Positions 43,354 to 56,876 of a stretch of 64,000 nucleotides of DNA are shown piece by piece (position 1 is the first letter of the stretch; each line of letters opens with the position of its first letter). The notes beneath the pieces were generated by a model. It saw only the letters and a program-made list of their open reading frames with translations, was not told the origin of the DNA and ran no database searches. This stretch comes from a plasmid: the NCBI RefSeq assembly GCF_056746865.1, contig NZ_JBWKMP010000004.1, one strand, 5' to 3'. The translations under genes and the position numbers were made by a program.

Positions 43354-43879
43354 ATATCAGCACAGAAACCCGCGAAATTCTGCGCAATTACAAAGCCGTG
43401 ATTAATGCGCGGCGTCGTGAAATGGGGCAGAAACCGCTCACCACTGCGCAGATTGTTGATGAAATCTGCGATTTTGTGGCGAATCAGCAGGCTGTATTCC
43501 TCGGCGGTCACTACATCCTTCAGGGCAGCATAAACAGGTGATACAGGGGCAGGCGGTGGAGGCCGCCTGTCAGCCCGCGCGAAAACCCCTGGCAGGCTGA
43601 CGCCTGCCGGAAGGGAAGCGGGCCACGCTGGCGCGTCGCCCGTTACCCTTCCCGTCTGTGATGTGTCTGACTCAGGAGTGTTTCTTTCTTATGTTATGGA
43701 ACTGTTCCTGATGTTGTTGTTCCTTTATCTACTGCTCTGATTCTGACTACTGCAGTGTTGTTCTGTCTGCCGGGCGCACCTTCGGCTCCCGGCTGCCTGG
43801 CGGCATCCGGTCGTCAGGCCCGACTCCGACAGGCAGCTGCTGGCGCACCTGCCAGTCTCCGCCGAACCCGCTGGCGCGG

Positions 43880-44345
43880 TTTCGGGCTGCCGCTACGGTC
43901 CGATGCGTGAAAACCCCTGGCTTGCAGCGACCGTTCCGGTCGCGCCGCCTCTGTCGCGCCGTGGCCTGCGCTCCCGGCATCCCGGCAAAAGGCCGCCGGG
44001 ATGTAAGGGGCAACGCCGTTTCGCGCACGCGCTCTCCGTCGTTGCGGCGGGCCCCTGCTCATTGCCTGCCGGGTGCCACACACCCGTATGAGTCCCTGTC
44101 GCCGGGGGCATAGACAGCCACAACCTGCCGCACTGACTGTCCAGGGTAAATGAACAGCCCACAAAATTTTTTACCCAAAAACCGGTAAAAAATTTTGCGT
44201 TCTGCCCAGGACAGGTGCGTCAGGCCGTGGCAGTGATGCCCCTTGCGGCGAAGGTTCTCAAACGGGTGAAGTTCATACCACAGGGAATACAGCAGCAGGT
44301 TCCCGCGAAACGTCAAAACCGCGGCTCCCGAAACTCAACGGGTGA
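43880..44345 (+). repeat. Frpo/ssi-like leading-region repeat, copy 1 (diverged)
   Basis: ~85-90% identical to copies at 47090-47650 and 52565-53140; GC-rich stem-forming segment followed by conserved promoter-like core. Confidence 0.6.
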
Positions 44346-44578
44346 TGTTCTTTAAAAATCAGGATTTATTTCAGGCTCCGGCAATACGCATTTATTTGTT
44401 CTGTCAGTCATCCGGCTGGCAGGTAATGAGAACGCAGGAACAGAAGGAGGAAAACACCGGAGAACGTCAGACGCAGATATGAAAAAAGCAGGCCGGGGAG
44501 GACCTGCTTAATCCACACCGCAAAAACTGTTCGAGCAGTTTCTGCGGTTCCATTCAACAGTCATAAGGAGTTTCATTT

Positions 44579-44809
44579 ATGACGGTAAGTATTGTTTCAC
44601 CTTCCGCAGCGGCTGTAAAGCCCCGCCGTCATCCCCGTTTCAGACGCGAAGACATCCCCGCGCCGGAAATTGACCCCGTGCTGAAAGCCTTCGGGCGACA
44701 CATTGCCCGGAGTTTTCACCGGGGACGTGGTGTACACATCCCCGCCATGAAAAATACGGCTTTCGGGCAGGTGCTCCGCACACTCGAACTGAAACGCGCT
44801 TTTAACTGA
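44579..44809 (+). CDS. hypothetical protein (76 aa)
   Basis: ORF downstream of repeat copy 1. Confidence 0.4.
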   Translation: MTVSIVSPSAAAVKPRRHPRFRREDIPAPEIDPVLKAFGRHIARSFHRGRGVHIPAMKNTAFGQVLRTLELKRAFN

Positions 44810-46832: not shown

Positions 46833-47011
46833 TGACACAGGGCTGGCGGGAGGATAAATGCCCGTCTGTCCGCGCCGGGAAAAAACCGCGCGCCGGTGGC
46901 GCTGAAAGGGGCCGCGCTCACGCGCCGCCCCTTTCATTACGCGGACGTTCTGATGGGGGCTTCTGTCTTTTCAGACCTGTCATTTGTCTGTTACTGATGA
47001 TGTTGTTGTTC

Positions 47012-47071
47012 CTGCTACTGCTACTGCTACTGCTACTGCTACTGCTACTGCTACTGCTACTGCTACTGCTA
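47012..47071. repeat. perfect tandem hexanucleotide repeat (CTGCTA)x10
   Basis: read directly; followed by one imperfect unit CTGTTC. Confidence 0.95.
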
Positions 47072-47089
47072 CTGTTCTTCTTTTTTCTA

Positions 47090-47650
47090 CTGCCCTGATT
47101 ATTGTCTGTTTTGTTGTTCTCCTGCTTATGCCTTTTCCGGGCGTCCCCCTGGCGGGGCGGGCTGTCGTGAACGGAGCCAGCGAAGCTGTCTCCGCCCTGG
47201 CGGGCTTCCATCCCTGACGCAAAAACCCGGGTTTGCAGCGACCGGAACGGTCGCGCCACCCTTGTCGCGCCGTGGCCTGCGCTCCCGGCATCCCGGCAAA
47301 AGACGCCGGGATGTAAGGAGCAACGCCGTTTCGCAAACCGCGCTTCACGTCGTTGCGGCGGGTCCCTGCCCGTTGTTCTGTCCGGTGCCATTCACCTGTT
47401 TAAGCCCCTGTCGCCGGGGGCATAGACAGCCACAACCTGCCGCACTGACTGTCCAGGGTAAATGAACAGCCCACAAAATTTTTTACCCAAAACCCGGTAA
47501 AAAATTTTGCGTTCTGCCCAGGACAGGTGCGTCAGGCCGTGGCAGTGATGCCCCTTGCGGCGAAGGTTCTCAAACAGGTGATGGTGAATACCGGAGGGAA
47601 CAAAAGGCAGGTCCCCGCAAAACGTCAAAACCGCGGCTCCCGAAACTCAA
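47090..47650 (+). repeat. Frpo/ssi-like leading-region repeat, copy 2 (upstream of ssb)
   Basis: near-identical to copy 3 over ~560 bp. Confidence 0.7.
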
Positions 47651-47692
47651 CAGATGATGGGGGCTGAAAACATCAACAGAAGGAGACACATC

Positions 47693-48571: not shown

Positions 48572-50595
48572 ATGTCAGTAACAAAGTCTGAACCAAAATC
48601 TACCCGTAAAGCAAGCCGTAAACCTGCAAAAACGCAGGAAACTGTCCTGTCTGCCCTGCTGGCGCAGACGGAGGAAGTGAGCGTGCCGCTGGCCTCGCTG
48701 ATTAAGTCACCACTGAATGTGCGCACGGTGCCGTATTCTGCGGAGTCCGTCAGCGAACTGGCTGATTCCATTAAGGGGGTCGGCCTGCTGCAGAATCTGG
48801 TTGTTCATGCCCTGCCAGGTGACCGCCACGGTGTCGCCGCAGGTGGTCGCCGACTGGCAGCACTCAACATGCTGGCAGAGCGTGGCATCATTCCGGCTGA
48901 CTGGCCTGTCCGCGTGAAAATTATTTCGCAGGAACTGGCGACGGCCGCATCGATGACCGAGAACGGTCATCGTCGGGATATGCACCCAGCCGAACAGATT
49001 GCCGGATTCTGTGCAATGGCGCAGGAAGGCAAAACACCTGCACAAATCGGTGATTTGCTGGGCTATTCACCCCGCCACGTTCAGCGAATGCTGAAACTGG
49101 CTGACCTTGCGCCTGTCATCCTCGATGCGCTGGCAGAAGACCTCATCACCACCGAGCACTGTCAGGCGCTGGCGCTGGAGAACGACACCGCGCGTCAGGT
49201 GCAGGTGTTTGAAGCCGCCTGTCAGTCGGGATGGGGCGGTAAACCGGAAGTACAGACCATTCGTCGTCTGGTGACCGAAAGTGAAGTGGCGGTGGCAGGG
49301 AACAGTAAATTCCGCTTCGTGGGGGCTGATGCCTTCTCGCCAGATGAACTGCGCACTGACCTGTTCAGCGACGACGAGGGTGGCTATGTGGACTGCGTGG
49401 CGCTCGATGCCGCCCTGCTGGAAAAACTCCAGGCTGTTGCTGAACACCTTCGGGAAGCCGAAGGCTGGGGATGGTGCGCCGGACGCATGGAGCCTGTCGG
49501 TGAGTGCCGTGAGGATGCCGGAACATACCGCTGTCTGCCGGAGCCGGAAGCGGTGCTGACGGAGGCGGAAGAAGAACGTCTGAACGAACTGATGACGCGT
49601 TACGACGCGCTGGAAAACCAGTGTGAGGAATCTGACCTGCTGGAAGCAGAAATGAAGCTGATGCGCTGCATGGCGAAGGTCAGGGCGTGGACGCCGGAGA
49701 TGCGTGCCGGAAGCGGTGTGGTGGTGTCCTGGCGTTATGGCAACGTGTGTGTCCAGCGTGGTGTGCAGTTGCGCAGCGAGGATGATGCGGCTGACGACGC
49801 TGACCGCACGGAACAGGTGCAGGAGAAAGCGCCCGTGGAGGAAATCAGTCTGCCACTGCTGACGAAAATGTCTTCCGAACGCACGCTGGCAGTCCAGGCA
49901 GCACTGATGCAGCAACCGGACAAATCTCTGGCACTGCTGGCATGGACGCTCTGCCCTGATGAATCCCCTAATGATTTTTACCAAAATCATTAGGGGATTC
50001 ATCAGCGCTCTGCCTGAATGTGTTTGGCAGCGGAGCGTACAGTAAACCAGCACAAATCAGCCTGGAATGTAAACATTATTCGCTGACCAGCGATGCGCCA
50101 TCGGGGAAGGACGGTGCCGCATTCCTGGCGCTGATGGCAGAAAAAGCCCGTCTTGCAGCCCTGTTACCGGAGGGATGGTCACGGGATATGACGACATTCC
50201 TGTCACTCAGCCAGGAGGTACTGTTATCCCTGCTCAGTTTCTGCACCGCGTGCAGCATCCACGGCGTTCAGACCCGCGAGCATGGTCACACGTCACGCAG
50301 TCCGCTGGACTCGCTGGAGAGCGCTATCGGATTCCACATGCGCGACTGGTGGCAGCCGACGAAAGCAAACTTCTTCGGACACCTGCAAAAGCCGCAGATT
50401 ATCGATGCCCTGAATGATGCCGGACTGTCCGGTGCTGCGCGGGACGCGGAGAAAATGAAGAAAGGCGATGCCGCTGAACATGCAGAGTTCCACATGAAAG
50501 ACAACCGCTGGGTGCCTGGCTGGATGTGTACACCACGTCCACAGGCAGAGACGGAAACCACGGAGTACCGTGACGACCAGGCAGAAGCCGCCTGA
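48572..50595 (+). pseudogene. ParB-like nuclease domain protein, interrupted at 49947-50014 by a 50-bp Tn10 remnant plus 9-bp duplication
   Basis: two adjacent track ORFs (48572-49993, 50020-50595) in different frames; removing 59 bp restores a ~655-aa frame. Confidence 0.75.
49956..50005. mobile_element. 50-bp IS10/Tn10 nearly-precise-excision remnant
   Basis: CTGATGAATCCCCTAATGATTTT-TACC-AAAATCATTAGGGGATTCATCAG (two IS10 outside-end 23-mers inverted); flanked by 9-bp direct repeat CGCTCTGCC. Confidence 0.8.
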
Positions 50596-50663
50596 CCGCC
50601 AGTCATAAACCATTTATCACGCCGCCCTGCCGGAGACGGGGCGGCAGCAAGGGAGATACCGTG

Positions 50664-51098
50664 ATGAAAACTGAACTGACCCTGAATGTATTACAGACCA
50701 TGAGCGCACAGGAATATGAAGATATCCGGGCTGCCGGAAGTGATGAACGTCGTGAACTCACACATGCCGTGATGCGGGAGCTGGATGCGCCGGATAACTG
50801 GACGATGAACGGCGAGTATGGCAGCGAGTTCGGCGGCTTTTTCCCCGTCCAGGTCCGTTTCACGCCTGCCCACGAACGTTTTCACCTGGCGTTATGTTCA
50901 CCGGGCGATGTCTCTCAGGTCTGGGTGCTGGTTCTGGTGAATGCCGGTGGTGAGCCGTTTGCGGTGGTTCAGGTACAGCGGCGGTTTGCACCGGAAGCCG
51001 TCAGCCATTCACTGGCACTGGCGGCGTCACTGGACGCGCAGGGGTACAGCGTCAGTGACATCATCCATATCCTGATGGCGGAAGGAGGTCAGGCATGA
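50664..51098 (+). CDS. psiB: plasmid SOS inhibition protein PsiB
   Basis: [41 protein letters not shown]... Confidence 0.9.
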
Positions 51099-51814
51099 GC
51101 GCACGTTCACAGGCACTGGTTCCCCTCAGCGCAGAGCAACAGGCCGCATGGCGGGCGGTGGCGGAGACAGAAAAACGCCGCCACCAGGGAAACACGCTGG
51201 CGGAATATCCGTATGCGGGGGCGTTTTTCCGCTGTCTGAACGGAAGCCGCAGGATATCGCTGTCTGACCTGCGATTTTTCATGCCGTCCCTGACCGCAGA
51301 AGAACTGCGCGGCAACCGTTCTCAGTGGCTGTATGCCGTCGATGTGCTGATTGAAACTCAGGGCGAGGTCTGCCTTCTTCCCCTTCCCGGCGATGCAGCA
51401 GAGCGGCTGTTCCCGTCGGTGCGGTTCCGTGTCAGGGAGCGCAGTCGCCACAAATCCGCACTGGTCATGCAAAAGTACAGCCGCCAGCAGGCGAGGGAGG
51501 CAGAGCAGAAAGCCCGTGCGTACCAGGCGCTGGTCGCTCAGGCTGAAATCGAACTGGCATTCCATTCGCCGGAAACAGTCGGAAGCTGGCATGCACGCTG
51601 GAGTGACCGGGTGGCAGAGCATGACCTGGAAACCCTGTTCTGGCAGTGGGGTGAGCGTTTTCCGTCACTGGCCGGAATGGAACGCTGGCAGTGGCAGGAT
51701 ATGCCGTTCTGGCAGGTTATTGCGGAAGCCAGTCTTGCAGCAAGAGAGGCCGGTCACGCTGTCCGTGAGATGGAGCGGTGGATGGTGCCGAACAAACTCC
51801 GGGAGGCGGCGTGA
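51095..51814 (+). CDS. psiA: PsiA
   Basis: 239-aa ORF overlapping psiB stop. Confidence 0.85.
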
Positions 51815-52035
51815 TGCGGCAACAATCACACAGATTACCCGTAAACAGCCTGAATGAGCGGGTTATTTTCAGGAAAAGTGAGTGTGGTCAGCGTGCAGGT
51901 ATATGGGCTATGATGTGCCCGGCGCTTGAGGCTTTCTGCCTCATGACGTGAAGGTGGTTTGTTACCGTGTTGTGTGGCAGAAAGAAGATAGCCCCGTAGT
52001 AAGTTAATTTTCATTAACCACCACGAGGCATCCCT

Positions 52036-52248
52036 ATGTCTAGTCCACATCAGGATAGCCTCTTACCGCGCTTTGCGCAAGGAGAAGAAGGCCATGAAAC
52101 TACCACGAAGTTCCCTTGTCTGGTGTGTGTTGATCGTGTGTCTCACACTGTTGATATTCACTTATCTGACACGAAAATCGCTGTGCGAGATTCGTTACAG
52201 AGACGGACACAGGGAGGTGGCGGCTTTCATGGCTTACGAATCCGGTAA
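52036..52248 (+). CDS. mok: Mok-like reading frame overlapping hok (translational coupling element)
   Basis: 70-aa frame overlapping the hok ORF in another frame, as in hok/sok-type loci. Confidence 0.45.
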
Positions 52249-52252
52249 GTAG
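52094..52252 (+). CDS. hok: Hok-family type I toxin (FlmA/SrnB-like)
   Basis: 52-aa [52 protein letters not shown]. Confidence 0.85.
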
Positions 52253-52564
52253 CAACCTGGAGGCGGGCGCAGGCCCGCCTTTTCAGGGCTGATGCTGGTC
52301 TGACTGCACTGAAGCGCCTTTATAAAGGGGCTGCTGGTTCGCCGGTGGCCCCTTTCTCCTTGCTGGCATTGTACGGGCATGAACAACCAGACTGCCAGGA
52401 AGGCCGTTTCCCTCCGGGAACGGGGATGAACGTGCGCCTGCGGCGCCCGTTCTTTTCCCCCGCCTTCTCTGTTTATGACTTACCAGAAATCACATCACCT
52501 TCCCTTTGATTATTCTCTTTTTCCTCCTGCTCTGACTCTGATTACTGCTCTGACTCTGATTACT

Positions 52565-53140
52565 GCTGCCCTGATTATTGTCTGTTTTGTTGTTCTCCTG
52601 CTTATGCCTTTTCCGGGCGTCCCCCTGGCGGGGCGGGCTGTCGTGAACGGAGCCAGCGAAGCTGTCTCCGCCCTGGCGGGCTTCCATCCCTGACGCAAAA
52701 ACCCGGGTTTGCAGCGACCGGAACGGTCGCGCCACCCTTGTCGCGCCGTGGCCTGCGCTCCCGGCATCCCGGCAAAAGACGCCGGGATGTAAGGAGCAAC
52801 GCCGTTTCGCAAACCGCGCTTCACGTCGTTGCGGCGGGTCCCTGCCCGTTGTTCTGTCCGGTGCCATTCACCTGTTTAAGCCCCTGTCGCCGGGGGCATA
52901 GACAGCCACAACCTGCCGCACTGACTGTCCAGGGTAAATGAACAGCCCACAAAATTTTTTACCCAAAACCCGGTAAAAAATTTTGCGTTCTGCCCAGGAC
53001 AGGTGCGTCAGGCCGTGGCAGTGATGCCCCTTGCGGCGAAGGTTCTCAAACAGGTGATGGTGAATACCGGAGGGAACAAAAGGCAGGTCCCCGCAAAACG
53101 TCAAAACCGCGGCTCCCGAAACTCAACAGATGATGGGGGC
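52565..53140 (+). repeat. Frpo/ssi-like leading-region repeat, copy 3
   Basis: near-identical to 47090-47650. Confidence 0.7.
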
Positions 53141-55999: not shown

Positions 56000-56189
56000 A
56001 TGAAAATGAAGTTTGAGTTGGTTCAAATATAAGAATTTTTATGATTCAAAAAGATGACAATACGTCAGATAATTAGTATATTAATTACGTGGTTAATGCC
56101 ACGTTAAAAATTGAAACTGAAAATCGCCGATGCAGGGAGGTCTGAACTCCCTGCATCGACTGTCCATAGAATCCTTAACGGAGGTTCCT

Positions 56190-56876
56190 ATGTGTGCGCT
56201 GGATCGTAGAGAAAGGCCACTTAACAGTCAATCTGTAAATAAGTACATCCTTAACGTTCAGAATATCTACAGAAATTCTCCCGTTCCGGTTTGTGTCCGT
56301 AACAAAAACCGGAAAATCCTTTATGCCAATGGGGCTTTTATTGAACTCTTTTCCAGAGAAGATAAACCCTTATCCGGAGAGAGTTATATACGTCTGCAGG
56401 TTGAAATTTTTCTTTCATCACTTGAACTGGAATGCCAGGCTCTTGGACATGGCTCTGCATTTTGTCGTCGTTTTAATTTTCATGGCGAAATCTATCAGAT
56501 AAGGATGGAGAATGTTTCTTTTTATAATGACGAATCTGTTGTTTTATGGCAAATTAATCCGTTTCCTGATTATCCATTTTTTGCGTTAAGTCAGAGTGGA
56601 AGTAATACAAATACTTCTGATAAATTAACGATATGGAATGATCTTTCCCCCGGGACATTGCTTGTTTTCTCTTTTTATATGCTGGGTGTTGGTCATGCAA
56701 CAATTGCCAGAGAATTGGGTATTACAGACAGAGCATCTGAGGATCGAATTAAACCAGTTAAACGGAAAATAAAAGAATTTTTTGAACACTTTGATTTATT
56801 CAGAGTGTCATGTATCTATAAAGGGAAAATAGATTTGCTATTAAATATAATTCGTGAATTTTATAGCGTTAAGTAA
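56190..56876 (+). CDS. traJ: transfer activator TraJ
   Basis: track ORF 56130-56876; probable start at MCALDRR (56190); position between traM and traY. Confidence 0.75.

Follow-up and report, generated by a model that had tools for sequence, protein, structure and literature searches.

Both type I toxin-antitoxin systems and post-segregational killing have hok/sok as their founding example, and the system helps explain the stable inheritance of IncF resistance plasmids. On plasmid R1, the locus (parB, X05813) encodes a 52-aa Hok and a 70-aa Mok. Plasmid F carries flmA/flmB/flmC (flm, stm; NC_002483, ~62.7-63.3 kb) after psiB-psiA and between Frpo-type repeats, and PMC9849209 describes flmAB as a functional homologue that occupies the same place in the leading region. 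Loci of the hok family follow a common logic, each combining an antisense RNA with a toxin mRNA whose 5' and 3' ends pair with each other (PMC9841398). Other members, namely srnB (F), pndA (R483/R16) and the chromosomal hokA-E/gef genes, belong to the same Pfam family but are much more divergent in sequence.

Here we describe the copy found in the window, by which we mean the whole 64-kb stretch of plasmid DNA that was analysed. The region at 51885-52361 almost certainly holds an undamaged hok/mok/sok locus, a type I toxin-antitoxin system for post-segregational killing that belongs with R1 parB and F flm; it lies on a conjugative IncF plasmid, within the leading region. An earlier note had placed a hok/mok-type locus after psiA, at 52036-52252, with a 52-aa Hok-family peptide and an overlapping mok-like frame, and had expected an antisense Sok-like RNA on the minus strand. 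The locus and both frames were borne out, with all sequence-level elements present and intact. The interval of 217 bp begins with the first base of the mok ATG and ends with the last base of the hok stop codon; the functional locus of ~480 bp (~51885-52361) is about double that. It is the only hok locus in the 64-kb window, where tblastn found no second hok or srnB-like locus.

Plasmid R100 (NC_002134, 47173-47653) is 100% identical over 481 bp and has the same psiB-psiA genes upstream and the same hypothetical, DUF932, SLT and traM genes downstream. The two differ further away, R100 having the IS10 end of Tn10 ~0.8 kb upstream of psiB, whereas the window has an uninterrupted leading region from ssb to psiB. 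This hok/sok copy is thus already known and ubiquitous: as a discovery it carries little weight, being a base-for-base copy of that of R100 and common to more than 1,000 sequenced IncF plasmids. Its practical value lies in annotation, namely the ~480-bp extent of the locus, the 52-aa Hok, the presence of mok and Sok, and the strand of the Rfam model RF01794.

Hok and Mok reading frames

The list of open reading frames contained an overlapping frame at 52073..52252 (+), whose internal ATG at 52094 opens a 52-aa peptide, a predicted membrane toxin, preceded by a Shine-Dalgarno sequence (SD) AGGAG at 52080-52084 and closed by the stop codon TAG at 52250-52252. This peptide matched Pfam HOK_GEF (E=1.2e-21, 76.5 bits, cut-off 22) and, over residues 1-52, the NCBIfam Hok subfamily (126.4 bits, cut-off 73), both well over the cut-offs. 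On the same strand, and overlapping hok in another frame, mok runs from ATG 52036 to the stop codon TAA at 52246-52248, with its SD GAGG at 52025-52028. Its 70-aa product matched Pfam DUF5431, the Mok family, from end to end (E=2.6e-41, 140 bits, cut-off 27) and the NCBIfam equivalog 'modulator of post-segregation killing protein' (151.6 bits, cut-off 110). Short overlapping ORFs commonly arise by chance, but the overlap of Hok and Mok is beyond chance.

An exact-sequence look-up returned the source name 'Protein Hok ... RepID=HOK_ECOLX' for the Hok sequence, and 'Protein FlmC homolog' and 'modulator of post-segregation killing' for the Mok sequence, each of the two being present on at least 1,000 contigs. 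The Hok of F differs from that of the window by a single residue (H39Y). In contrast, the window Hok scored 44.6 bits against the HokA equivalog, under its cut-off of 89, and an approximate SrnB-like query peptide was 39% identical to the C-terminal part of Hok. The window Hok belongs to the R1/F plasmid subfamily and not to the srnB/pndA/chromosomal group.

We compared the locus with related sequences in an alignment comprising the window, F flm and 11 plasmid homologues (80-99% identity), referred to below as the 13 homologues. The mok frame is open in 12 of the 13, with a length of 70-71 aa in ten and 50 aa in two. The remaining case is a K. pneumoniae plasmid (L006; OW967847, 69836-70051), in which a 1-nt deletion after the mok ATG brings it in frame with hok. 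The product predicted there, annotated 'Toxin HokB', is a Hok of 71 aa with an N-terminal extension, and a separate mok frame is absent.

Promoter and regulatory elements of the hok mRNA

A promoter scan placed the hok/mok promoter at 51885..51914 (+), with a -35 box TGGTCA (51885-51890), an 18-nt spacer and a -10 box TATGAT (51909-51914) that is kept in the 13 homologues. The numbering of the hok mRNA was set by placing +1 at 51921. With this register, the window base agrees at each of the 15 positions that the FASTBAC-Seq study of R1 (PMC9841398) names, i.e. T-12, A-11 and T-7 of the -10 box, which is the same in R1, and G4, C5, T6, G64, A70, G71, C72, C74, G105, A106, G345 and C358 of the transcript. 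The tac, fbi, ucb and dcb elements, the 3' hairpin and the Sok promoter of R1 also have the same architecture as in the window (PMC9841398). The likeness to R1 is thus drawn from the names of the proteins and from 15 nucleotides in register, rather than from a direct alignment.

The body of the full-length hok mRNA spans 51921..52318 (+, nt 1-398), its exact 3' end being putative. At the 5' end lies the translational activator element, tac (GGCGCTTGAGG, 51921..51931, +), and at the 3' end the fold-back inhibitory element, fbi (CTGAAGCGCC, 52309..52318, +), with which it pairs; both are invariant in the 13 homologues. The ucb, or anti-SD box (GATAGCCCCGT, 51987..51997, +, nt 67-77), pairs with the mok SD region (nt 103-112). 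Its segment AGCCCCGT is invariant in the homologues, and it contains A70, G71, C72 and C74 of the nucleotides in register with R1 (PMC9841398), while G105 and A106, on the SD side of the stem, are in register with R1 mutants. The same SD region can instead pair with the downstream complementary box, dcb (GGATAGCCTC, 52053..52062, +), which gives the hairpin that Sok targets in the truncated mRNA. This pairing comprises nine base pairs (52025-52033 with 52053-52062) around a GAGGC/GCCTC core that is invariant in the 13 homologues, and the dcb overlaps the Sok -10 box on the opposite strand.

Downstream of the hok stop codon, a GC-rich stem-loop (52256..52281, +) corresponds to the 3' end (~+361) of the truncated, active hok mRNA, and by analogy would shield this RNA from 3' exonucleases. 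It contains G345 and C358, the positions of R1 mutants that destabilise Tr-hok (PMC9841398). Beyond fbi, a 14-bp hairpin (52324-52355) followed by CTTTCTCC (the whole at 52324..52361, +) probably serves to terminate the primary hok transcript. A simple terminator scan missed it because its T-tract is weak. The sites that were listed by the scan inside or downstream of hok (52151-52178, 52136-52148 and 52434-52446) were regarded as chance. A full-text literature search for the tac and fbi sequence strings gave unrelated primer matches only.

One variant in the comparison is pLD91-1 (L004), which we take to match R1. It is 99.0% identical to the window, from which it departs at five positions, all of them outside the named regulatory boxes. 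A single base is changed in the 5' hairpin and another in the terminator stem, and the stretch from the 3' hairpin to fbi has one base change and a 2-nt indel. F flm is identical to the window in tac, fbi, ucb, the SD/dcb core and the Sok promoter, and differs in the 5' tail of Sok and the mok start region (GGACTAGACATAGGG against TGTCTAAGCATGCAG).

Public annotation gives a more modest picture of the locus. In RefSeq/PGAP, Hok has 41 aa and begins at an internal GTG at 52127 (52127-52252), as it does in NC_002134 (47400-47525) and NZ_MN101857 (52121-52246), and neither mok nor Sok is annotated in the RefSeq records examined. In a separate record, GenBank CP023934, an upstream minus-strand ORF is labelled 'protein sok'. 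Taken at face value, a truncated Hok on its own would be what is expected of a decayed, non-functional relic such as several of the chromosomal hok loci of E. coli K-12. We consider such decay extremely improbable, since the promoters, SDs, start and stop codons, tac, fbi, ucb, dcb and 3' hairpin are all intact, Hok and Mok exactly match sequences named after Swiss-Prot entries, identical DNA is kept in more than 1,200 plasmids, and the 41-aa annotation reflects the choice of a start codon, not a lesion. The short Hok and the missing mok and Sok of RefSeq are a weakness of annotation, not biology, and the locus is best read as intact.

Folding of the hok mRNA

Folding predicts a full-length hok mRNA that is highly structured and translationally closed, with a minimum free energy (MFE) of -175.3 kcal/mol (z = -8.07, nt 1-398). 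The tac and fbi elements, whose detectability had been proposed as a check on the locus, are paired with each other in both the MFE and the centroid structure when no constraint is applied; nt 1-7 and 9-10 are joined to 392-398 and 389-390 (GGCGCUU.AG to CU.AAGCGCC). The same folds contain the closing stem between ucb and the mok SD (nt 67-77 with 103-112), and both pairings were found on folding either nt 1-398 or nt 1-441. At earlier stages of transcription other pairings prevail. The 40-nt nascent transcript has tac in a local hairpin, which fits the metastable structure as described for R1. In the 80-nt RNA, as well as in constrained folds, tac nt 1, 2 and 4-6 pair with ucb nt 75, 74 and 72-70 (5 bp), and this stem includes G4-C72, C5-G71 and U6-A70, the pairs inferred from R1 mutants (PMC9841398).

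We then compared the cost of the open form with and without fbi. Forcing the tac/ucb pairing cost 13.4 kcal/mol in the 398-nt RNA against 1.6 kcal/mol in the 361-nt RNA, and forcing both tac/ucb and SD-mok/dcb in the 361-nt RNA cost 1.9 kcal/mol. Loss of fbi therefore all but abolishes the energetic advantage of the closed form. The MFE structure of the 361-nt RNA still has the closed ucb/SD stem, with the open form lying 1.6-1.9 kcal/mol above it, and the published open conformation was not obtained by unconstrained folding of this RNA. Reproducing the switch would therefore take more than thermodynamic folding, which we regard as a limitation and not a contradiction.

The mechanism of R1 hok/Sok has been described (PMC9841398), and sequence identity suggests that the window copy would follow the same course. 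A weak hok promoter would give rise to a very stable mRNA. In the full-length RNA, the pairing of tac with fbi would lock the fold and ucb would hide the mok Shine-Dalgarno sequence, so that neither translation nor binding of Sok would take place. Slow 3' exonucleolytic trimming would halt at the GC-rich hairpin at ~+361, with loss of fbi, after which tac would pair with ucb and the mok SD with dcb, exposing the mok start in a hairpin loop. In a plasmid-carrying cell, the unstable Sok, expressed constitutively from a stronger promoter, would pair there and RNase III would cut the duplex. In a plasmid-free cell, Sok would decay, mok would be translated and hok along with it by coupling, and the 52-aa Hok would damage the inner membrane and kill the cell. 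Because of the near-identity to R1 and R100, we infer that killing, RNase III cleavage and differential RNA stability extend to the window copy, for which the ends and processing of the transcript and the expression and toxicity of Hok are predicted in the same manner.

The instability of Sok has a further mechanistic consequence, in that the shut-off of transcription by an infecting phage would deplete Sok and release Hok, making the locus mainly an abortive-infection (phage exclusion) system. R1 hok/sok is reported to exclude T4 in part. This reported effect is modest, however, and the neighbours of the locus are genes of a conjugation leading region with no phage-defence context, and we regard phage exclusion as a very unlikely main role compared with post-segregational killing.

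The 13 homologues offered a means of assessing these structures. While the coding region diverges by up to ~20%, little or no variation was seen in tac, fbi, ucb, the GAGGC/GCCUC core or the Sok -35 TTGC and -10 boxes. When the full-length MFE structure of the window was placed on the alignment, 90.7% of the cells were paired. Pairs changed on both sides numbered 15, against 8.2 +/- 1.7 in shuffles (none of the 500 reached 15) and 1-6 in slid controls. Covariation was clearest in helix 13 of the coding region and in helix 14, the 3' hairpin, where five pairs were changed on both sides. The terminator, helix 15, was 100% paired across the 13 homologues; changes affected both sides of one pair and a single side of five. 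Helix 1, formed by tac and fbi, was likewise 100% paired. For tac, fbi, ucb and the SD/dcb core, the support comes from conservation and not from covariation, because their columns never vary among the 13 homologues.

The predicted Sok antisense RNA

On the minus strand, a candidate Sok promoter extends from 52080 to 52052, with a -35 box TTGCGC (52080 to 52075), a 17-nt spacer and a -10 box TATCCT (52057 to 52052). Its TTGC and TATCCT/CATACT boxes are kept, with fixed spacing, in 13 of 13 homologues. The promoter has 8 of 12 matches to the consensus and was missed by the simple promoter scan because the threshold of the latter is 9. Five bases downstream of the -10 box, a G at 52046 is the presumed start of Sok. 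The RNA would run from ~52046 to 51981 (-), with a length of ~64-66 nt; its start and ends, which we place by the geometry of the promoter and by what we take to be the R1 Sok RNA, should hold to within a few nucleotides. The earlier note had expected Sok on the minus strand at 52010-52090, an interval that covers the promoter and the 5' half of the RNA but misses the 3' hairpin, which reaches to ~51981.

At its 5' end, this RNA has a single-stranded tail that is complementary to the start region of mok; a long hairpin comes next, and the 3' tail is U-rich. The 66-nt fold has an energy of -26.5 kcal/mol (z = -6.07), and none of 200 shuffles was equally stable. The core of the hairpin is kept in the 13 homologues, while the 5' tail varies between subfamilies. 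The difference of the tail between the R1/R100 type and the F type fits an antisense specificity that is set in the tail. In addition, the F Sok hairpin is 5 nt shorter than that of the window; given these differences in the tail, the mok start and the hairpin, the antisense specificity of F is probably different from that of the window.

An Rfam scan, which had been suggested as a way of detecting Sok, returned RF01794 'sok' above threshold (88.9 bits, gathering score 59), the match spanning model positions 1-157 of 157. It lies at 51920-52096 on the plus strand, from the hok +1 to the hok AUG, and the model therefore represents the hok mRNA leader, which is the target of Sok and includes its complement, rather than the Sok RNA. 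The match supports the locus well, but lends Sok no independent support. As RF01794 is built on the hok sense strand, strand calls that are taken from it mislabel Sok. No minus-strand Rfam family was found in a scan of 51800-52500 with a permissive E-value threshold, whose sole minus-strand line, IRES_FGF1, is a chance match (E = 0.54).

Setting in the leading region

The locus follows psiB (50661..51098) and psiA (51095..51814), the latter directly upstream, both with profile matches (PsiB and PsiA) far over the curated cut-offs. The gene order is ssb, a DUF905 gene, a ParB-like ORF, psiB, psiA and hok/sok, followed downstream by a hypothetical gene, a DUF932 gene, an SLT transglycosylase gene, traM and traJ. 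The hok/sok locus thus sits in the leading region beside oriT, in the same place as flmA/B/C of F. IncFII plasmids such as p2019XSD11-92 share an identical stretch of 22 kb with the window (42000-64000). For the 481-bp segment that holds the locus, at least 5,000 plasmid records match, of which more than 1,200 do so at 99% identity or above, and conjugative MOBF/MPF_F plasmids from Escherichia, Klebsiella, Salmonella and Shigella make up most of the matching records.

A non-coding direct repeat of ~600 bp occurs three times (43702-44347, 46988-47659 and 52524-53135), with 89-95% identity between copies. These repeats look like Frpo/ssi single-stranded-DNA promoters, of which two (Frpo1 and Frpo2) have been described on F, compared with three Frpo-like copies here. 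The second and third copies, 94-95% identical and 5476 bp apart, bracket hok/sok, the third starting ~160 bp past the hok/sok terminator. As single-stranded DNA, the minus (transferred) strand of this third copy folds into an imperfect hairpin of ~330 nt (z = -11.7), in keeping with what Frpo/ssi promoters would show.

Such an arrangement bears on the role for which the locus was selected. For F, the position of flmAB between Frpo2 and Frpo1 has been proposed to be a safeguard against recombinational loss of the intervening genes (PMC9849209), and toxin-antitoxin genes are enriched in leading regions, where they are encoded in the T-strand orientation (PMC11541004). With the bracketing repeats and the folding of the third copy, these observations are in line with a role in protecting the leading region rather than in retaining the whole plasmid, the same molecular machine killing cells in which recombination between the repeats has deleted ssb-psiB-psiA. 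Early action during establishment, against competing elements or host defences, might be added to this role. The hok/sok module stabilises heterologous replicons whatever its position, however, as the R1 parB literature cited in PMC9841398 reports, and protection of the leading region is compatible with classical post-segregational killing without excluding it. We therefore judge it unlikely, though worth keeping in view, that leading-region protection is the selected role in place of plasmid retention by post-segregational killing.

The orientation of the locus also raises a more speculative idea, to which we give a low probability. In a new recipient, read-through from the Frpo2-like repeat (~47.0-47.7 kb), as a single-stranded-DNA promoter, via psiB-psiA could give hok RNA before Sok, with slow 3' processing acting as a timer. 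Read-through would be possible because the template of hok/mok is the T-strand and the interval from the psiA stop to the hok promoter (51815-51884) showed no terminator-like site, and Sok would come later than hok because its template is the complementary strand, which has yet to be made at that stage. If this were true, the hok timer would addict or kill recipients that fail in second-strand synthesis and establishment. To our knowledge, no T-strand timing mechanism for hok/sok has been tested before.

Several minor features were seen in the same region. Tandem repeats occur at the left edge of the Frpo-like repeats, as (CTGCTA)n in a 12-nt register at 46988-47095 and as two copies of CTGACTCTGATTACTG at ~52526-52560, and they fall within small hydrophobic ORFs, e.g. 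52475..52693. Directly downstream of the first Frpo-like copy, Rfam matched AS-pc01 (antisense RNA to pHK01_035) at 44483-44584 (-) with 89.7 bits; no equivalent above threshold follows the other two copies. The ParB/Spo0J-like gene is split into two ORFs in different frames (48572-49993 and 50020-50595), whereas F has a single ORF of 652 aa, and it is absent from the gene table of the identical RefSeq plasmid; it could be a frameshifted pseudogene, or its absence a gap in the table. Finally, strong Rfam matches at 56087-56196 correspond to the traJ 5' UTR (+) and the FinP antisense RNA (-), the fertility-inhibition control of the tra operon that is expected in an F-like plasmid.
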